Origin: an uncultured Lacisediminihabitans sp.
Lineage (GTDB): Bacteria > Actinomycetota > Actinomycetes > Actinomycetales > Microbacteriaceae
Assembly: GCA_966212465.1 (NCBI GenBank)
Contig: CBIHRK010000002.1
Location: 28,806-92,805, forward strand
Reading direction: 5' to 3'
DNA: 64,000 nucleotides
Of this stretch, positions 30,360 through 44,858 are shown piece by piece; the first letter of the stretch is position 1; every line of letters starts with the position of its first letter. Under the pieces are notes generated by a model that was not told the DNA's origin, made no database searches, and saw only the letters and a program-made list of their open reading frames with translations. A program made the position numbers and the translations under genes.

Positions 30360-31637
<1,278 letters not shown>

Positions 31638-31832
31638 GCTCGGCCTCCTCCTGGTCTCGGCCCCCGGTGCCTTGAACACCAGCCGGAAAATGTCGCTGCG
31701 GGTTACGTCTCCACGGTGAAACGTGTATTGAGCCTAACGCGAGTCGGTGACAGAGCGTGCACCACGGCGAAATACGTTACGGCGCGCCCCCATCGGGCGC
31801 TTTAGACTTCTTGAGCGAACAGGAGCGGGTGG

Positions 31833-32414
31833 ATGACGACACGAGCGGCACGGGCGGCACGCGGCACCGTCGCAGCCACCGTCTCGCTCTTCGTCGCTCT
31901 GTGCTCGCACGCCGCCGCCGGCGGAGGGATGCCCGGCCTCGCCGGAATCGCCCTCTGCGGCGCCTTCGCGACCCTCGTCTGCATCGCACTGGCCGGACGC
32001 ACGCTCTCCCTCCCCCGCCTGGCCGCCTCCGTGGTGGCGAGCCAGTTCGCGTTCCACGCGCTGTTCAGCGAGTTCGCGCCCGCCGCGGGTGCACGGGTGG
32101 TCCCCGCGATGGCGGGGATGCACGGCCTGCCCGAGCCGCTGGCATCCGCCCACCCCGGCCACGAGACGATGCCCTCCTGGATGTGGTTCGCGCACGCGAT
32201 CGCCGCTGTGGTGACGGTCGCGGCGCTCGGCTTCGGCGAACGCGCATTCTGGGCGGTCGTGATGCGGGTGGCGCCCCGGGCGTTCCGGATGCTGCTGCCC
32301 GCGCCGCAGCCCTCCGCCCGACCCGCGACACCCTCCTTCGCTCCCCGCGTCATCCGCCGTCTCGCTCCCCTCTCGGCCATGCGCCACCGCGGGCCGCCGG
32401 TTCCGTCGTTCTAG
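31833..32414 (+). CDS. His/Met/Cys-rich membrane protein ending in RGPP; candidate arrest-type leader of the copper operon
   Basis: About 4 hydrophobic segments, LCSH, MAGMHG, AHPGH, FAHA; C-terminus ...MRHRGPPVPSF; TAGACT -10 at 31803. Confidence 0.75.
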   Translation: MTTRAARAARGTVAATVSLFVALCSHAAAGGGMPGLAGIALCGAFATLVCIALAGRTLSLPRLAASVVASQFAFHALFSEFAPAAGARVVPAMAGMHGLPEPLASAHPGHETMPSWMWFAHAIAAVVTVAALGFGERAFWAVVMRVAPRAFRMLLPAPQPSARPATPSFAPRVIRRLAPLSAMRHRGPPVPSF

Positions 32415-32484
32415 AGATCTCCCCCATTTTTTTCTCTCCGCGGGCGCGGAGCCGCTGGCGCGCGCCCACGAAACGAAGGACGAT

Positions 32485-33183
32485 ATGAACAACTCGATGA
32501 AAAAGGCTGCGATCGCGCTCGGCGCGGGTGCGCTGCTGGCCGTTGCCATCCCGCTCTCCGCGAGCGCTCACGTGACGGTGACCCCGTACACGGCGAAGCC
32601 GGGCGAGTTCGCCCTGGTCACCTTCAAGGTGCCCAACGAGTCGGGAACGGCCTCCACCACGAAGGTCGAGATCGACCTCCCGAGCGACACGGCGTTCCAG
32701 TACGTCAGCTACGTGCCGGTTCCCGGCTGGACGGGCGAACTGGTGACGACGACTCTCGACAAGCCCATCAAGGTGGAGGGCAACGAGCTCAAGGAGGGCG
32801 TCACCCGGGTGATCTTCACGGCGAATGAGGGCCAGGGAATCGCCGACGGGCAGCTCCAGCTCTTCCAGATCTCGGTAGGCCCGGTGCCGGATGTCGGCCG
32901 GCTCTACCTCCCCACCACTCAGACCTACAGCGATGGCAAGGTCGTGAAGTGGTCGGACCGGGGCGGTGACGCCGAGCACCCCGCGCCGGTGCTCTACGTC
33001 AACGACGCTCCCGTGGTGAGCCATGACGAGGATGCCGAGGTGACGGCTGCGTCGCAGGCCGAGAACGCGCCGGCGGCGACCACGGATGTCGTGGCCCGCA
33101 GCATCGGAATCGGCGGCCTGGTGGTCGGCGCCGTCGGCGTCGTGGTGGCGATCGCGGCTCTGCGGCGCCGGAGCGCGGCCTGA
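32485..33183 (+). CDS. ycnI: YcnI (DUF1775) copper-binding membrane protein
   Basis: Signal peptide ...ASA followed by N-terminal His (HVTV), FKVPNES, TQTYSDG..VKW, C-terminal TM anchor. Confidence 0.88.
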   Translation: MNNSMKKAAIALGAGALLAVAIPLSASAHVTVTPYTAKPGEFALVTFKVPNESGTASTTKVEIDLPSDTAFQYVSYVPVPGWTGELVTTTLDKPIKVEGNELKEGVTRVIFTANEGQGIADGQLQLFQISVGPVPDVGRLYLPTTQTYSDGKVVKWSDRGGDAEHPAPVLYVNDAPVVSHDEDAEVTAASQAENAPAATTDVVARSIGIGGLVVGAVGVVVAIAALRRRSAA

Positions 33184-33185
33184 CC

Positions 33186-33782
33186 ATGGGAATCCTGAAG
33201 CGTGCGGCCGCGGTGGTGGCGATCGCGGCGGCGGCGGTGCTCGCCACGGTCTCCCCGGCGAGTGCGCACAACTACCTCGTCTCGTCGACCCCGTCGTCGG
33301 GCGAGACGGTGACCGCGCTCCCCGCGCGCTTCTCGGTGACCACCAACGGGATCCTGCCGAACGTGAACGACGACGGTTCGGGGTTCGCGCTCCTGGTTCG
33401 GGACGCCGACGGCCGCTACTACGGCGACGGCTGCGTCACCGTGCAGGGCGCCGGCATCTCGATCCCCGCCGTGATCGGGAAGCCGGGCGCCTACACGATC
33501 ACCTGGCAGGTGATCTCGACGGACGGGCACATCGTCTCCGACACGTTCCCCTTCACGTGGGCCCCCTCGGGCGCGGCGAAGGAGAGCGCGGGGAGCACGC
33601 GGATCCCGGACTGCCACGGCAGGGTGCATCCGAACTCCTCGGGCGTCACCCAGGGCACCGGCTCGAGCGCCGTGTCGGACGACACGCTGGTCACCGTGCT
33701 CTGGATCGGCGGAGCCGTGCTCGCGGTCGGTGCCGCAGTGGTGGTCACGCTGCTGGTCATCGGCAGGCGCAAACGCGCATGA
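33186..33782 (+). CDS. copC: CopC-family copper-binding protein with C-terminal TM anchor
   Basis: ASA-HNYLVSSTP N-terminal His, WQVISTDGH motif. Confidence 0.9.
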   Translation: MGILKRAAAVVAIAAAAVLATVSPASAHNYLVSSTPSSGETVTALPARFSVTTNGILPNVNDDGSGFALLVRDADGRYYGDGCVTVQGAGISIPAVIGKPGAYTITWQVISTDGHIVSDTFPFTWAPSGAAKESAGSTRIPDCHGRVHPNSSGVTQGTGSSAVSDDTLVTVLWIGGAVLAVGAAVVVTLLVIGRRKRA

Positions 33783-33823
33783 GAAGAGGGGCCCGTCGCG
33801 TTCCCGCGGCGGGCCCCTCTTCT
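33782..33823. terminator. Bidirectional terminator hairpin between copC and clpP2
   Basis: AGAAGAGGGGCCCGTCGCG-ttcc-CGCGGCGGGCCCCTCTTCT, ~19-bp stem. Confidence 0.8.
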
Positions 33824-33839: not shown

Positions 33840-34505
33840 CTACTTGGTGATCGCCGGGATGTTCTTGCGCGTGACCAGAACCTGGTCGATCAGGCCGTAC
33901 TCGAGAGCCTGCTCGCCGCTCAGGATGTTGTCGCGATCGATGTCGCGGTTCACCTGCTCCGGCGTGCGGTTCGAGTGGCGCGACAGCGTCTGCTCGAGCC
34001 AGGTGCGCATGCGGAGGATCTCCGCCGCCTGGATCTCGATGTCGGACGCCTGGCTCGACCCCTCCGAGCCGGCGGCCGGCTGGTGGATGAGGATGCGGGC
34101 GTTCGGCAGCGCGAGACGCTTGCCGGGCGTTCCCGCGGCCAGGATCACCGCGGCGGCCGAGGCAGCCTGGCCCAGAACGACGGTCTGGATCTGCGGGCGC
34201 ACGTACTGCATCGTGTCGTAGATCGCCGTCATCGCGGTGAACGAGCCACCGGGCGAGTTGATGTACATGACGATGTCGCGGTCCGGGTCCTGGCTCTCCA
34301 GAACGAGCAGCTGCGCCATCACGTCGTCCGCCGAGGCGTCGTCGATCTGCACGCCGAGGAAGATGATGCGATCCTCGAACAGCTTCGCGTACGGGTCCTG
34401 CCGCTTGTAGCCGTAGGCCGTGCGCTCCTCGAAGGTCGGAAGGATGTAGCGCGACTCGGCGGTCGGCCGGGCGAGACCCGATCCCAGGGTGAAGTTGGTC
34501 TCCAT
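33840..34505 (-). CDS. clpP2: ATP-dependent Clp protease proteolytic subunit (ClpP2)
   Basis: [36 protein letters not shown]. Confidence 0.96.
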   Translation of the reverse strand: METNFTLGSGLARPTAESRYILPTFEERTAYGYKRQDPYAKLFEDRIIFLGVQIDDASADDVMAQLLVLESQDPDRDIVMYINSPGGSFTAMTAIYDTMQYVRPQIQTVVLGQAASAAAVILAAGTPGKRLALPNARILIHQPAAGSEGSSQASDIEIQAAEILRMRTWLEQTLSRHSNRTPEQVNRDIDRDNILSGEQALEYGLIDQVLVTRKNIPAITK

Positions 34506-34507
34506 GG

Positions 34508-35128
34508 TCAGTCCTTCTTTCCGGTCGCGTCGAGGTTCGACACCGCGTCGTCTGTTCCGCCGCCGCCGACGACCTCGTCCGCGTGCTCGCGGAGGTGATC
34601 GACGAAGCCGTACTCGAGGGCCTCCTTGGCGGTGAACCAGTTGTCGCGGTCGTTGTCGATGAGCACCTGCTCGACCGTCTTGCCGGTCTGCTCGGCCGTG
34701 AGCTCGGCCATGCGCTTCTTCATGTCGAGGATGACGCCCGCCTGGGTCTGGATGTCGGCCGCCGTTCCGCCGAATCCGCCGGACGGCTGGTGCAGCAGCA
34801 CCCGCGCGTTCGGGGTGATGTACCGCTTGCCCTTCGTGCCCGACGAGAGCAGGAACTGCCCCATCGAGGCGGCGAGGCCGATGCCCACGGTGACGATGTC
34901 GTTCGGCACGAACTTCATCGTGTCGTAGATCGCCATTCCCGCGGTGATCGATCCACCGGGTGAGTTGATGTAGAGGAAGATGTCCTTCTTCGGGTCTTCC
35001 GCAGCCAGGAGAAGCATCTTGGCGCAGATCTCGTTGGCGTTGTCGTCCCGCACCTCCGAGCCAAGCCAGATGATGCGGTCCTTGAGGAGTTGGTCGAAGA
35101 TGCTCGAGACCAATGCCGGTTGGGCCAT
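34508..35128 (-). CDS. clpP1: ATP-dependent Clp protease proteolytic subunit (ClpP1)
   Basis: [34 protein letters not shown]. Confidence 0.96.
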
Positions 35129-35143: not shown

Positions 35144-36121
35144 TCAGTTATCGCTTGGTGACGAATCTATCGGAGCGGGGCCGCCCCCAAGTCGCTGTTC
35201 GCCGTGGGCAGAGCCACGGGGCCGATCGATGGAGGCGAGGGCGAATTCGCGCACCGTGACCGGGTGGATGGCCGCGCACGTGCTGAGCAGCGGCTCGGAG
35301 AGGGTCTCGGTGAGCGATACCGTCAGGGGCGATCCGTCGTGGTCGAGCGACACCCGGATGCCGGCCGGCCCCTTCTGCTCCATCGTCACCCTGAACGCGT
35401 CGATGCGGTCGTCGCCGGTCGACTCCGTGGCGAAGGCCACCGCGGCCTGCGCGGCGTTCGTGAGCGAGGTGCGACCGCGGAGGTAGCGCGGGAGGGTTCG
35501 CTCTGCCGTGTAGGCCTCGATCACGCGGTGGGATTCGGCAGCCGGCATCCGGCCGTAGAGCAGCGCGTGCGGGAACACGATCATGGTGGCCGCGAAGCGA
35601 TCGCCGCCGAGGTGCGAGCACTCCCAGGTGAGGGCGGGGTACGCCCGGGCGAGGGCGGCGACCACCGGGCGGCCCTTCACGGCGCAGCACTGATCGTGCC
35701 GGGCGTGCGTGCAGACGCAGATCACCGGATCGTCGCTGGCGACCCCGGTCGATCCGTCGAGCGGCACGTCGAGCAGCTCGGCGGGATCGTCGACGCTCCC
35801 CCAGCGCACGGACTCGACGCCGGGTCGTGCGTCCACGGCTGCCCAGCGCCACCGCCGCTGCGCTCGGCGCTCGTCGGCCCGGCGCCCGGTCCGGCGGATC
35901 GCGAGCGGGCGGATTCCGGCGCCCTCGATCCGCGCCACCAGCCGGCGCGCCAGCCCGGGGTCGAGCCGGGACTGGAAGAAGGCGTGCTCGCCCCAGGCCC
36001 CGTCGATCTCGACGAGGAACCAGCGGTCACCTCGCCCCGCCGTTCCTGCGAGCGGGTCGTCGCGCTCGAGCGAGCGGTCGCTGCACGGAGCCCAACCGGT
36101 CGACGGCAGGGCGACCGTCAT
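35144..36121 (-). CDS. Sucrase/ferredoxin-like [2Fe-2S] protein
   Basis: DDPLAGTA, WFLVEIDGAWG, VCTHARHDQCCA, WECSHLGGDRFA; ATG overlaps the JmjC stop (ATGA). Confidence 0.88.
   Translation of the reverse strand: MTVALPSTGWAPCSDRSLERDDPLAGTAGRGDRWFLVEIDGAWGEHAFFQSRLDPGLARRLVARIEGAGIRPLAIRRTGRRADERRAQRRWRWAAVDARPGVESVRWGSVDDPAELLDVPLDGSTGVASDDPVICVCTHARHDQCCAVKGRPVVAALARAYPALTWECSHLGGDRFAATMIVFPHALLYGRMPAAESHRVIEAYTAERTLPRYLRGRTSLTNAAQAAVAFATESTGDDRIDAFRVTMEQKGPAGIRVSLDHDGSPLTVSLTETLSEPLLSTCAAIHPVTVREFALASIDRPRGSAHGEQRLGGGPAPIDSSPSDN
35165..35214 (-). promoter_or_regulatory. Putative clpP1 promoter with ClgR-like site
   Basis: TAGATT -10 (35165-35170); GTTCGC-CGTGG-GCA at 35197-35210, one mismatch from the ClgR GTTCGC-N5-GCG motif. 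Confidence 0.55.
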
Positions 36122-37341
36122 CGGAGCACCAGCACGCCCTCGCGCAGCAGCCGGCGGGACACCACGAGCGACGATTCCGCATCCAGCCCGGGGAGCGCGC
36201 CAGCGGCGAACTCGTCGCCGAGGGCGAGCGCCCGGACCGCCTCCGCCGCCTCGACGGGCAGGCCGATCGTCGTGCCGCCCAGCACGATGCGAACCGTCTC
36301 GTCCACCTCCACCCGGTTGGCGAGAGCGTCCCGCCACGATACGAGTGCCTCGCCGTCGAGCTCCGCGAGCGACTCGACCGTCGCCAGGGGGAAGACCGGT
36401 TCCGCTCGCGTGGAGGTTGCGAGCATGGTGGCGAGTCCGCGGGTGACCGCCGACGCGTCAGCGGCGGCCACGGTGTGGGAGAGCCGGGCGGCGGTGTCTG
36501 CTACGAGGTCGGCGAGGGATGCGGCATCCGAGTAGTCCGTGCCGAGCGGAAGCGAGCCGCGCAGGGCCGGGTCTGCGGCGGCGAGGCCGATGAGGCGCTG
36601 CACGATGGCCCAGCGGGTGAGGGCGTTGACGCCGATCGTGAGGTGGATCGACGTGCCGCCGAGGGCGGTGGCCGAGTGGATCCAGCCTCGCGGCAGGTAG
36701 AGAACGTCGCCCGGGGAGAAGGTGGCGTCGATCGCCGGTGCGCCGGATGCCTTCGCCGCGACCTCCGCGGAGTGATCGCTCCACGGCTGGTCGCGCAGCG
36801 GGTCGGGGTGCACCGGCTCGTGGATGGTCCAGTGCTTCTGCCCGTGGACCTGGATGACGAAGACGTCGTGCACGTCGTAGTGCGGGTCGAAACCGCGCGA
36901 CGATGCAGGCGTGATGTAGGCGTTCACCTGGGCGGGGGCGGCGAGCTCGGCGCTCAGTGCCCGCGTGAAATCCGCGATCGGCTTCCAGGTGCGGTGCAGC
37001 CCCTGCAGCACGAGCGTCGCGCCCGCGACGAACTCGGCGAGCACCTTCGCGGAGTCGAGCTGATCGGCGACCTCGGCGCCGAAACCACCCGCGCTCGTGT
37101 ACCTCGACGGGTCGAGCAGGGAGCCCTCCATCGCCATGCGCACGAAGGGGGTGCGGATGCCTCGGGTGGCCACCAGCTCGTCGGCCGCGGCCAGCGAGAA
37201 CAGGTCGGAGAAGTCCCCGATCGACGGGGACAGAAGCGGCCTGGTGCCCCAGTACTCGCGCGCGAAGTCGTCGCCGGAGGTGCTGATGAGACGGGTGAGC
37301 GCGGGCCGGCGAACCGACCCGCGCCCCGATTCAGCGCTCAA
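36118..37341 (-). CDS. JmjC/Cupin_4 (ROX; YcfD/NO66-like) Fe(II)/2-oxoglutarate oxygenase
   Basis: VNAYITP, GFDPHYDVHDVF (HxD), GQKHW, YLPRGWIH (distal His), C-terminal winged-helix-like tail; TTG start overlaps the peptide stop (TTGA). Confidence 0.88.
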   Translation of the reverse strand: MSAESGRGSVRRPALTRLISTSGDDFAREYWGTRPLLSPSIGDFSDLFSLAAADELVATRGIRTPFVRMAMEGSLLDPSRYTSAGGFGAEVADQLDSAKVLAEFVAGATLVLQGLHRTWKPIADFTRALSAELAAPAQVNAYITPASSRGFDPHYDVHDVFVIQVHGQKHWTIHEPVHPDPLRDQPWSDHSAEVAAKASGAPAIDATFSPGDVLYLPRGWIHSATALGGTSIHLTIGVNALTRWAIVQRLIGLAAADPALRGSLPLGTDYSDAASLADLVADTAARLSHTVAAADASAVTRGLATMLATSTRAEPVFPLATVESLAELDGEALVSWRDALANRVEVDETVRIVLGGTTIGLPVEAAEAVRALALGDEFAAGALPGLDAESSLVVSRRLLREGVLVLR

Positions 37342-42227: not shown

Positions 42228-44858
42228 ATGGCCGAGGAACAGAAGGACTACCGGGCGCACGCCGGGTACGTGCTCTTTCCGCGCTCTCCGGGCGATCTCA
42301 CCTCAGTCGCCGCGTGCCCGGCCTGTTTCACTCCGATCGACGGGCCCACGTGTCGCGTCTGCGGTCTCGATCTCGCGCACCCGGCAGCGGCCGAGCTGGC
42401 CGCGCTGTCGCAGGATGCCGCGGCGCTCCTCGATCGCCGCCTCGATCTCATCGGCCGCATCCGCTACGAGACCGAGCCGGCCGGCGGCGAGCGCCCCTCC
42501 GGCGAACCTTCTCCACCCGAGCGGGCCGACGCAGCCCCCGGCACACCTCAGGCGTCGCCGCCCGCGCGCCGATCGGGCGTGCAGGTCGTGCTGCTCGTCG
42601 TCGGGGTCGCGCTGCTCTCCGTCGCCGCGATCTTCTTCCTGGTGTACGCCTTCATCGTGTTCGGACTCGTTGCGCGCACGGCCATCGTGGGGACTGCGAC
42701 GATCGCCTCTATCGCGGCGGCGGTGCTGCTGAGGCGGCGACTTCCTGCGACCGCGGAAGGCATAGCCGCGCTCTCGGTGGTGCTCGTGCACCTCGACATC
42801 TGGGCGATCCAGGCGAACGACTTCTTCGCCGCAGGCTCGGCCGACTCCGCGACCTACTGGGGCTCCGCCCTCGTGCTCACGGGTGCGATCGGCATCATCT
42901 GGGCCCGCTTCGGCGGTCCGCGAGCGTGGGGCGTCGCGGGAGCGATCGTCATCGGAACGGGTCTGGGGCTGCTCGTCGGACGACTCGCGGATCGGGCGGT
43001 CGGCGGATGGGCGCCGTTCGCGTTCGCCGCCGCGCTGGCCCTCAGCGGCGTCATCCATCGGGTCGTGAAGCGACCGGAGCAGCGCGCGATACTGCTGTGT
43101 ATCGGCGGCGCGGGAATGGTGCTCACGTCGATCGGCGTCGTGCTCATGCCCGTGCTCGTGACGCGAACCGCAGGCGAGAACCTGGTGGTCGCCCTCGTGC
43201 TCGCGGCGGTGGGCACGGCGAACGTCGTCGCCGCAGGCGCCTCGGCGCGCACCACCGCGCTGCTGTTCGCGAGCGCGGCGGCGGTCGCGCCCGCGCTCGT
43301 GCTCGCGGGGCGGGCGGCGCTGCTCGCCGCGGCCGGCCTCGGGCAGTCCTGGTCGTTCGGCGCCTCGGACACGCTCATCCCCTCCGGTGGCATCGATGGT
43401 CCCGGTGCCGTGGCTTTCACGAGCCTCGTGGCGCTCGTGCTACTCATCGCGGGACTGGTCGCCGCGGGCCGCTGGTCGATCGCTCCGCTCGACCGACCGT
43501 TCGGCATCGTGATCGCCGTCAGCTCCCTGCTCGTGCTCGCGGGCGGTGTGATCGAGCCGATCTTCGCCGAGCAGGCCTGCTGGACCCTCGTGGGTCTCGC
43601 CGCGCTCGTTCTCGGCATCGTGCTGCGTCGTCGCCTCGCGCCGCGATCCCGGCTCCTCGCGGGTCTCGCCGCGCTCGTTCCCCTCGGCCTCTCCTACTGT
43701 GTCGGGTGGGCCACCCTGCAGACCTGGCAGGGTCCGACCGTCCTCGCGATCGCCGCCCTCATCCTGGTGCGGATGCTGCTCCGGAGCGCCAGAACCAAGG
43801 CCGCGACACTGCTCGCCGCGATCGTGCTCCTCGTGGTGTGCGCGGGCGCGGGAGCACGCGCGCTGGCCCTGCCGCTGAGACCGGGGGTGGCGGCGGATGC
43901 CGTGAACGCCGCGCATGCCACCGGATTCATCAGCATCCTGCTGCTCGGAGCCGCGGCCTACATCGTGGGTGCCCCCATCAGCACCCTCGATCGTCGGGTG
44001 GCGTTCTGGCTGCCCCTCGGCGCGATCGCGGTGAGTACCGCCATCACCCAGATCCTGCTCCCCCTCGGCGTGCCGGTCAGCTCGCTGCTGCTCCCCGAAT
44101 ACGTCACGAGTCTGCTCGTGAGCCTGTTCCTCATCGCTGCGCTCGCATCGTGGGCGGTGTCCGCCGCGACCGCCGCGTATGCCGCGGAGCGCGCCGCTGC
44201 GGTCGGCGCACTCCCGGTGGCGCTCGCTCTGCTCGTCGACGGCCTGGCGCGCACCATCGGAGTCGAATCGGTGCAGCGCGCCGTGGCGATCGTGCTCGTG
44301 CTCAGCGTCGCGCACCTGGCCGCGCGCCTCTCCTCCCTGCCTCACCGCCGGGTGGCCGCGGGCTCCGCCATCGTCACCGCGGCGGCCGCCGGACTGTACG
44401 AGTTCGCGATCGGCGAGCTCACGCCCCTGGAGTGGGCGACGGTTCCCGTCGGGCTCGCGTTGATCGCGACGGGAGCGCTGCACCTCGTTCGCACCCCCGA
44501 GGCGCGCAGCTGGGCCTGGCTCGCCCCGGGCACGGCCATGCTGCTCCTGCCGAGCCTCATCGCCACCGCGTTCGACCGGCCGCTGTGGCGTCTCGTCGCG
44601 CTCGGGGTCACCGGCGTCGCCATCATCGTGGTCGCGGCCGTGCTCCGCCTTCAGGCCCCGCTCGTCCTCGCGTCGGTCGTGGTGCTCGTGCACGCCGTCG
44701 CCACCTTCGCCCCGCAGATCCGAGCCGTCTACGAACTCGTCGAGTGGTGGGTCTGGATCGCGATCGGCGGCGCGATCCTGCTCGCCCTGAGCATCCGGTT
44801 CGAGGCGACCAGACGGGGCGTCAGCGGGTTCGCGCGAAGAATAGGCGCACTCCGCTGA
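42228..44858 (+). CDS. Large polytopic membrane protein (SCO7613-like C-terminus) with N-terminal zinc ribbon
   Basis: CPACF...CRVCG, many TM helices, SWAWLAPG...WRLV...GGAILL C-terminal motif. Confidence 0.75.
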   Translation: MAEEQKDYRAHAGYVLFPRSPGDLTSVAACPACFTPIDGPTCRVCGLDLAHPAAAELAALSQDAAALLDRRLDLIGRIRYETEPAGGERPSGEPSPPERADAAPGTPQASPPARRSGVQVVLLVVGVALLSVAAIFFLVYAFIVFGLVARTAIVGTATIASIAAAVLLRRRLPATAEGIAALSVVLVHLDIWAIQANDFFAAGSADSATYWGSALVLTGAIGIIWARFGGPRAWGVAGAIVIGTGLGLLVGRLADRAVGGWAPFAFAAALALSGVIHRVVKRPEQRAILLCIGGAGMVLTSIGVVLMPVLVTRTAGENLVVALVLAAVGTANVVAAGASARTTALLFASAAAVAPALVLAGRAALLAAAGLGQSWSFGASDTLIPSGGIDGPGAVAFTSLVALVLLIAGLVAAGRWSIAPLDRPFGIVIAVSSLLVLAGGVIEPIFAEQACWTLVGLAALVLGIVLRRRLAPRSRLLAGLAALVPLGLSYCVGWATLQTWQGPTVLAIAALILVRMLLRSARTKAATLLAAIVLLVVCAGAGARALALPLRPGVAADAVNAAHATGFISILLLGAAAYIVGAPISTLDRRVAFWLPLGAIAVSTAITQILLPLGVPVSSLLLPEYVTSLLVSLFLIAALASWAVSAATAAYAAERAAAVGALPVALALLVDGLARTIGVESVQRAVAIVLVLSVAHLAARLSSLPHRRVAAGSAIVTAAAAGLYEFAIGELTPLEWATVPVGLALIATGALHLVRTPEARSWAWLAPGTAMLLLPSLIATAFDRPLWRLVALGVTGVAIIVVAAVLRLQAPLVLASVVVLVHAVATFAPQIRAVYELVEWWVWIAIGGAILLALSIRFEATRRGVSGFARRIGALR

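Follow-up and report, generated by a model that had tools for sequence, protein, structure and literature searches.

A compact Microbacteriaceae member of the SLIV_18480-type RGPP arrest peptides precedes ycnI and copC and is a candidate nascent-chain copper sensor

Why is a small membrane protein with the ribosome-arresting tetrapeptide RGPP near its C-terminus encoded directly ahead of two copper genes? The question is raised by a 64,000-nucleotide (nt) stretch of DNA, hereafter the window, from an uncultured Lacisediminihabitans sp. of the Microbacteriaceae (assembly GCA_966212465.1, contig CBIHRK010000002.1, positions 28,806 to 92,805). Reading of the sequence and of the list of open reading frames (ORFs) gives a 193-residue ORF on the + strand (31833-32414), which runs from an ATG at 31833 to a TAG at 32412-32414; ycnI begins 70 nt past this stop and is followed by copC, all on the + strand. 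The initial annotation of this DNA had proposed that the ORF is a copper-sensing leader, and that a ribosome stalled at RGPP covers an anti-Shine-Dalgarno (anti-SD) sequence and thereby frees the Shine-Dalgarno (SD) sequence of ycnI. Its sequence statements (the ORF, the position of RGPP, the His/Met/Cys clusters, a pairing at 8 of 9 positions and a small hairpin) were all confirmed by re-reading. The answer that emerges from our comparisons is that the ORF encodes a member of a published class of actinobacterial arrest peptides, one that may sense copper while it is being made.

The conservation of RGPP is the first piece of evidence. A sequence search recovered 161 relatives, and in all 120 of those listed RGPP lies a few residues from the C-terminus; the named relatives are Microbacteriaceae of the genera Lacisediminihabitans, Cryobacterium, Rathayibacter, Leifsonia, Herbiconiux, Mycetocola and Microbacterium. 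When a profile was searched against 1.8 billion representative sequences, 4285 relatives were found at E ≤ 1e-3, and RGPP falls within the last 40 residues of 262 of 263 distinct family sequences, the exception being a 460-residue YcnI fusion. To avoid circularity, loci were fetched with sequences cut at residue 148 and with a pattern from the fourth transmembrane (TM) segment, A[LM][RG]xGERAFW, that lies outside RGPP. The motif was nonetheless present in each of the 52 homologous ORFs in the 51 loci so retrieved, 3-13 codons ahead of the stop (mode 5-6 across the family, one read-through locus apart). Thus, the expectation of the initial annotation that RGPP would be conserved near the C-terminus of homologues is borne out. 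The RGPP codons differ synonymously within the family, with five Arg, four Gly and four Pro codons in use, indicating that selection acts on the peptide and not on the RNA. Together, the alignments argue overwhelmingly that RGPP is conserved beyond chance.

Besides RGPP, the invariant columns of the family are G11, A22, H26, V67, S70, Q71, H75, M117, H121, A124 and T128, while the LS.MRH stretch ahead of the motif is moderately conserved. Between the conserved E136, at the inner end of TM4, and R186 of RGPP the sequence is variable, and its length is narrow (49-62 residues across the family, median 55). The start codon of the window ORF is backed by the N-terminal alignment, in which M1 is common to 109 of 119 homologues.

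Two observations on the occurrence of the motif may be recorded here. The only other RGPP in a window frame with high G+C at third codon positions, at 42911-42922 on the - strand, was discarded as an antisense shadow frame of a gene for an 876-residue membrane protein (42228-44858, + strand). In Glaciihabitans sp. dw_435 (L034:4001-5479) no stop follows RGPP, and the frame continues through the intergenic region into ycnI as an in-frame fusion of 492 residues that still keeps the ycnI SD and ATG; a 460-residue protein, P0248, resembles this fusion. These fusions are either sequencing errors or natural variants in which the tail and stop are dispensable.

The second piece of evidence is a published family. 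Fujiwara et al. (EMBO J 2025, PMC12992588) extracted small ORFs with RGPP or RAPP from 52,895 genomes. The annotation 'YcnI family protein' is found downstream of 2570 RGPP upstream ORFs (uORFs) and of 33 AGPP uORFs, a 140-fold difference, and is the most enriched downstream annotation among the groups seen in their RGPP table; 2491 of the YcnI-upstream RGPP uORFs are there predicted to be TM proteins. One of them, Streptomyces lividans SLIV_18480 (WP_003991421.1), is a protein with four TM segments whose gene precedes that of YcnI, and in its AlphaFold3 prediction three conserved His and one Met form a copper site (PMC12992588). In PURE systems with ribosomes of S. lividans or B. subtilis, SLIV_18480 yielded arrest products that were sensitive to RNase, and in vivo its arrest depended on the Arg, as β-galactosidase readings of 1.78 for the wild type and 19.1 for R273A indicate (PMC12992588). 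RGPP is also the most avoided tetrapeptide in bacterial proteomes (PMC12992588). Its arrest is the strongest and is refractory to elongation factor P (EF-P) in several sequence contexts; RAPP, the other strongest arrest core, is likewise found upstream of YcnI genes.

For a profile comparison, we rebuilt eight sequences of the SLIV_18480 cluster from the supplementary alignment of PMC12992588. The alignment of the window family with this cluster by hhalign has a probability of 98.8% and an E value of 8e-17 over 191 columns, and it places H26, Q71, H75, M117, H121 and RGPP on H35, Q80, H84, M164, H168 and RGPP of SLIV_18480. The two share four TM helices, three His and one Met located in TM1, TM3 and TM4, a C-terminal RGPP and a YcnI gene downstream on the same strand. 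They differ in length (193 residues in the window protein, 269 in SLIV_18480), in the outer loop (~30 residues, compared with ~75 in Streptomyces), in the Cys40/Cys127 pair of SLIV_18480, which the window protein does not have, and in the residues before RGPP (LSAMRH and LQHTVVR, respectively). Microbacteriaceae proteins with the sequence GERAFW are present in the source list of PMC12992588, including the protein of locus L035; the exact window sequence was not found among the entries listed from that source. Thus, the homology to the SLIV_18480 cluster and the presence of Microbacteriaceae in the source list identify the window gene as a new member of the published family, an assignment made by alignment. 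That the window protein arrests ribosomes at RGPP is something we would expect with high confidence. Since this class appeared in print in December 2025, along with proof of arrest in a homologue, what is new here is limited to a further member and to comparative constraints on the family. A Nocardia protein with RAPP upstream of YcnI aligns weakly to the family (probability 64%, E 6.5e-5), which is suggestive of an exchange of RGPP and RAPP within one family.

How might such a protein report copper? An AlphaFold2 model built on the family alignment (mean predicted local distance difference test score (pLDDT) 79.8) has four helices, at residues 4-28, 36-53, 60-81 and 115-154, in agreement with the roughly four TM segments of the initial annotation; the loop 82-114 and the tail 155-193 are of low confidence. 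Arg residues are clustered at the N-terminus (R4, R7, R10), in the loop that joins helices 2 and 3 (R56, R62) and beyond helix 4, so by the positive-inside rule the topology would be N-in/C-in. With this topology H26 (31908-31910), H75 (32055-32057), M117 (32181-32183) and H121 (32193-32195) would lie at the same depth near the outer face, and the His/Met-rich loop (residues 82-114, with a semi-conserved HxH) would be extracellular. The His, Met and Cys residues noticed at first are found in the clusters LCSH (23-26), MAGMHG (93-98), AHPGH (106-110) and FAHA (119-122). No Cys is invariant, as C24 is variable and C50 is present in 89 of 120 relatives. The three His and one Met near the outer face are a likely copper site. 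Foldseek found nothing in the PDB that matches the model at E < 1, and Pfam and NCBIfam searches with the ORF gave no family at E ≤ 0.1.

The genomic context is consistent with such a role. Copper genes are neighbours in 50 of the 51 loci, the exception being L003, in which an unrelated gene lies downstream, and the family is therefore tied to copper. The order ORF, ycnI, copC is found in about 40 of the 51, so that the view of the ORF as a polytopic membrane leader heading ycnI-copC stands, with DUF1775 (E 3.5e-40) and CopC (E 1.1e-13) identified in the downstream products. Both of these proteins have a signal peptide, a mature N-terminal His (ASA/HVTV in YcnI and ASA/HNYL in CopC) and a C-terminal TM anchor. 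CopD is missing from most loci in the loci search, and a search of the window for CopD found none. Some genomes carry second RGPP paralogues (L033:4001-4615 and L042:4001-4603, and others in L006, L011, L016, L038, L040, L045 and L048). The second copies of Cryobacterium precede a CopC gene alone and those of Clavibacter precede a 700-residue fusion of CopD and Caa3_CtaG (Pfam E values 7.6e-18 and 1.2e-81), which indicates one leader family wired to different copper genes. That the family senses copper is probable: the set formed by H26, H75, M117 and H121 fits this role, and the same hypothesis is put forward in PMC12992588.

The features of the operon are the following.

31803-31808, + strand: -10-like hexamer TAGACT, the likely operon promoter, called by conservation only
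31821-31825, + strand: SD sequence AGGAG of the arrest-peptide ORF, 7 nt 5' of its ATG, from sequence reading
31833-32294, + strand: putative sensor domain, residues 1-154, from the alignment and the AlphaFold2 model
32295-32387, + strand: Pro/Arg/Ala-rich disordered linker, residues 155-185 (pLDDT 57-60)
32388-32399, + strand: RGPP arrest core, R186 G187 P188 P189, codons CGC GGG CCG CCG, from its invariance in homologues
32400-32414, + strand: tail of four codons (VPSF) and TAG stop, which holds the proposed anti-SD sequence (32402-32410)
32290-32460, + strand: C>G bubble, a candidate Rho-utilisation region called by composition, which takes in linker codons, RGPP and the 5' part of the intergenic region
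32439-32470, + strand: most stable intergenic hairpin, folding free energy -21.1 kcal/mol, which includes the CTCCGC/GCGGAG arm
32475-32480, + strand: ycnI SD sequence GAAGGA, 4 nt before the ATG at 32485, from sequence reading
32485-33183, + strand: ycnI (DUF1775; Pfam PF07987, E 3.5e-40)
33186-33782, + strand: copC, last gene of the operon (Pfam PF04234, E 1.1e-13)

Most of the 51 loci have a TAGACT, TAGATT or TAGGCT hexamer 25-95 nt 5' of the homologous ORF. A scan of 31500-33800 for sigma-70 promoters and intrinsic terminators gave no match, which is why the promoter call relies on conservation. Directly 5' of TAGACT, the sequence CGGCGCGCC (31780-31800) contains the inverted repeat GCGCCC (31783-31788) and GGGCGC (31795-31800), and its core is found at the same place in L001, L002, L004, L025 and L036; this element may serve as a -35 region or as an operator that adds a further layer of transcriptional control. 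A run of seven T residues (32427-32433), in a genome of ~70% G+C, lies within AGATCTCCCCCATTTTTTTCTCTCC, the pyrimidine-rich and G-poor 5' end of the intergenic region. The scan does not call this run an intrinsic terminator because no hairpin precedes it.

The operon, on the + strand, sits between clpX (30360-31679, - strand) and clpP2 and clpP1 (33840-34505 and 34508-35128, - strand), where it interrupts an otherwise adjacent same-strand run of clpP1, clpP2 and clpX. The sequence GAGCCTAAC upstream of the ORF is also found in L001-L005 and L036, a recurrence from which placement beside clpX may be conserved in the closest relatives. Next to clpP1 is a Sucrase/ferredoxin-like ORF (PF06999, E 2.9e-17; 35144-36337, - strand) that is unrelated to the arrest ORF.

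The protein can be divided into two modules from which a mechanism may be proposed. The sensor module would be the four-helix N-in/C-in membrane domain with its three His and one Met, together with the His/Met-rich outer loop, and the arrest module would be the disordered linker that ends in RGPP. The ribosome would stall with Pro188 in the P site and Pro189 in the A site, at which point the linker would occupy the exit tunnel and the entire four-helix domain would already be inserted in the membrane; thus, copper at the outer face could be sensed by a nascent chain that is still tethered to the ribosome. Whether the ribosome is stalled would in turn determine the expression of ycnI and copC on the same mRNA. 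When copper is low the stall would persist and the genes would be on, and when copper is bound a pull on the chain would release the stall and turn the genes off. This polarity, in which low copper means a stall and active genes, is favoured because of the analogy with CruR, described below, and the copper-uptake role of YcnI and CopC; two reports implicate YcnI and YcnJ in B. subtilis copper acquisition (PMC8424229, PMC12154828). The stalled ribosome could act on the downstream genes by shielding the C>G-rich linker and intergenic region from Rho-dependent termination, or by remodelling a structured intergenic region.

The RNA between the ORF and ycnI was compared in 40 loci, which are related to each other. 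The intergenic regions are 62-191 nt long, and AAGGAC-type SD sequences are present in most of the homologous loci. All 40 contain more C than G (0.42 vs 0.28). The median C-G difference is 0.148, compared with 0.043 in 28 control co-directional intergenic regions of the same loci (p 4e-5), a control set that is small and crudely called and is set against targets that share ancestry. In the window, the bubble peaks over the linker codons (C 0.58, G 0.20), and at -90 nt relative to the stop 97% of loci have such a bubble. Folding likewise shows more structure in the intergenic regions than in their shuffles (mean z -1.30, p 8e-9); the 3' end of the best hairpin is 18-23 nt from the start codon in 14 of the 40 loci and 14 nt from the ycnI ATG in the window. 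RNAalifold found only 7 invariant pairs and no covariation in 12 Leifsonia-type intergenic regions, in which hairpins after the stop appear conserved by eye but fail to align. The composition and structure of these regions are hints of Rho-dependent or structural coupling. For the coupling step, Rho-dependent or other transcriptional attenuation probably ranks ahead of an effect of the structured intergenic region on the SD, which in turn ranks ahead of a specific anti-SD.

Several points weigh against this reading. The demonstrated arrest is that of the homologue SLIV_18480, the residues before RGPP differ between it and the window protein and upstream context affects arrest, and copper binding is predicted only. 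A search of sequencing runs for the organism returned DNA and metagenome runs only, with no RNA-seq or ribosome profiling (Ribo-seq) among them. The C>G bias could be a mere reflection of the Pro, Arg and Ala codons of the linker, the flanking coding regions are likewise C>G, and the control regions have the limits given above. The read-through in L034 and P0248 is hard to reconcile with a mechanism that needs termination near the stall, and a polarity opposite to that proposed, as in CutF, is possible. On balance, we favour the whole sensor-regulator model with moderate assurance: arrest is shown for a homologue, and copper binding, polarity, regulation in cis and coupling are inferred. A more specific version can be put forward only tentatively. 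In this version the polytopic His3Met domain would be a co-translational copper sensor, metal-dependent packing of which, as a four-helix bundle already inserted, pulls the chain off RGPP, with Rho-dependent attenuation in the C>G-rich linker and intergenic region and not SD unmasking as the readout, so that the logic of CruR would have arisen convergently in Gram-positive Actinobacteria from an unrelated sensor.

Of the alternatives, the one that survives best keeps the arrest peptide and reverses its sign. In this CutF-like arrangement copper would induce or stabilise the stall and ycnI-copC would be on at high copper, for buffering or resistance on the periplasmic side. In R. capsulatus, copper does induce CutF stalling and CutO production, CopC has historically been annotated as a copper-resistance protein (PMC12992588 itself uses the term 'copper-resistance proteins'), and the importer CopD is not found at most of the loci. 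We nevertheless consider this reversal rather unlikely, as the B. subtilis work cited above implicates YcnI and YcnJ (CopCD) in acquisition, RGPP arrests strongly without ligand in the PURE systems, which fits ligand-dependent release better than induction, and copper relieves the arrest of CruR, another leader of operons that include YcnI or CopC.

The sensor-regulator model favoured here also has to be set against the coupling that was proposed first, in which TCCGTCGTT (32402-32410) sequesters the ycnI SD, this anti-SD is masked by the ribosome that stalls at RGPP, and regulation is exerted at translation only, as in SecM, MifM and CutF. In the window, TCCGTCGTT complements AACGAAGGA (32472-32480), which holds the ycnI SD, at 8 of 9 positions, and this pairing occurs in the minimum free energy (MFE) fold of 32385-32500. 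By partition-function folding, SD pairing in the free RNA is 0.81 and involves positions -9 to -3 relative to the stop; with its P site at 32394, the ribosome would reach to about 32406-32409, a reasonable geometry. A match to the 9-mer with at most one mismatch within 60 nt has a P of about 0.055, a count made post hoc, as the match itself supplied the 9-mer. However, with the footprint of the stalled ribosome imposed, the window SD remains 0.74 paired, the MFE structure has an ensemble frequency of 0.048, and the 116-nt fold around the site is close to its shuffles (z -0.35), with the SD unpaired in the centroid. The duplex energy in the window is -9.3 kcal/mol, compared with -9.9 for local dinucleotide shuffles (p 0.60).

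The wider comparison points the same way. Over the 40 loci, SD pairing averages 0.61 for the free RNA and 0.59 once the footprint is imposed, and the SD partners fall in no common position. By duplex energy, the SD region binds the 30 nt covered by the stalled ribosome no better than it binds other windows of the same ORF (mean z -0.29, p 0.14), and the stretch with the proposed anti-SD is on average less complementary to the SD than the rest of the ORF (z +0.41). Measured against local dinucleotide shuffles, the complementarity has a median p of 0.55 (Fisher p 0.35), with 3 of the 40 loci below 0.05. Hence neither the freeing of the SD by the stalled ribosome nor the anti-SD/SD co-variation that the initial annotation had expected was recovered: the footprint leaves SD pairing unchanged, complementarity equals that of shuffles, and there is neither co-variation nor a common register. 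The CTCCGC (32436-32441)/GCGGAG (32446-32451) hairpin with its 4-nt loop does exist, and it is part of a larger GC hairpin that is not conserved. The proposed switch is thus distinctly improbable as the coupling in the window, although a minority of loci (L007, L029 and L041) have strong complementarity between the SD and the stall region, from which an SD effect may operate in some lineages.

A further observation concerns the same 9-mer. A second 8-of-9 complement of the ycnI SD 9-mer, TCCTTCGCT (32334-32342), lies in the linker codons, which read Pro-Ser-Phe there as they do at the first anti-SD. Against local shuffles, P is about 0.0007 for a pair of such matches within 180 nt, again a post hoc figure, and relatives show no equivalent.

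The weakest alternative, that the protein is mainly a working membrane copper component (an acceptor or permease that partners YcnI and CopC where CopD is absent) and that RGPP serves the protein itself, through slow C-terminal translation for insertion or as a cytoplasmic motif, without downstream regulation, would account for a TM domain more elaborate and conserved than a leader needs (4285 profile representatives and fifteen invariant columns, the intramembrane His and Met included), for the lack of CopD in the window and most loci and for the in-frame YcnI fusions L034 and P0248, yet it is very unlikely, since the most avoided tetrapeptide is 140-fold enriched over AGPP specifically upstream of YcnI genes and lies close to the stop (about 3-16 residues) in an otherwise unconserved disordered tail, a weakly aligning Nocardia protein upstream of YcnI suggestively has RAPP in its place, and the membrane-component and regulatory roles are not mutually exclusive.

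What the window adds, therefore, to a family with proven arrest is a compact Microbacteriaceae member of 193 residues with a short outer loop; the regulatory output and the ligand of the family are the open questions stated by its discoverers (PMC12992588). Across the 40 loci a stall-linked SD/anti-SD switch is not conserved, and what is conserved is a C>G-rich, structured intergenic region and a tight spacing between TM4 and RGPP. These constraints direct attention to Rho-dependent or other transcriptional attenuation and to a pull exerted by the folded membrane domain. If the sensor-regulator model is true, thousands of actinobacterial ycnI/copC operons would be under the control of a nascent-chain copper sensor and not of a transcription factor.

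The closest parallel to the window locus is CruR (Bp2923, DUF2946) of Bordetella pertussis, in which copper relieves arrest at RAPP and so allows Rho to terminate transcription past the uORF and ahead of the transporter gene (Roy et al., mBio 2022, PMC9426467). The Rho-utilisation (rut) bubble of CruR is a C>G stretch that starts in the unstructured coding part and continues into the intergenic region, and genes for YcnI or CopC can also follow CruR homologues (PMC9426467). Both CruR and the window ORF are the first gene of a copper operon, encode an exported or membrane-targeted nascent chain with a C-terminal R-x-P-P, and are followed by a long intergenic region with a C>G bubble. By contrast, CruR combines a signal peptide, a CXXC motif and RAPP, whereas the window protein combines four TM helices, His3Met and RGPP, and Rho dependence is demonstrated for CruR whereas the window locus offers a compositional hint. 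Membership of DUF2946 is ruled out for the window protein, as it has no Pfam match and lacks the combination of a cleavable signal peptide and an invariant CXXC; it is an analogue of CutF and CruR and not a relative.

In Rhodobacter capsulatus, the copper-induced stall of CutF (DUF2946) melts a stem-loop over the ribosome-binding site of cutO (PMC9973294; bioRxiv 10.1101/2025.02.05.636593). Like the proposed system, CutF is a nascent chain that responds to copper, carries its stall site in a Pro-rich C-terminal motif and governs the gene that follows it on the mRNA. It differs in its downstream gene, which encodes a detoxifying multicopper oxidase, whereas ycnI and copC lie downstream at the window locus. 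A conserved SD-shielding structure tied to the stall site, of the kind found in SecM-secA, MifM-yidC2 and CutF-cutO, was not found in the 40 loci. With SecM, MifM, ApdA and ApdP the window protein shares a plan in which an N-terminal localisation signal is followed by RAGP or an R-x-P-P core near the C-terminus and a short tail, and in which release would come from a pull on the nascent chain. In those systems, however, the genes downstream encode the Sec or YidC machinery, which supplies the pull, while at the window locus the genes downstream are copper genes and the nascent chain carries a conserved polytopic domain that would itself be the sensor.

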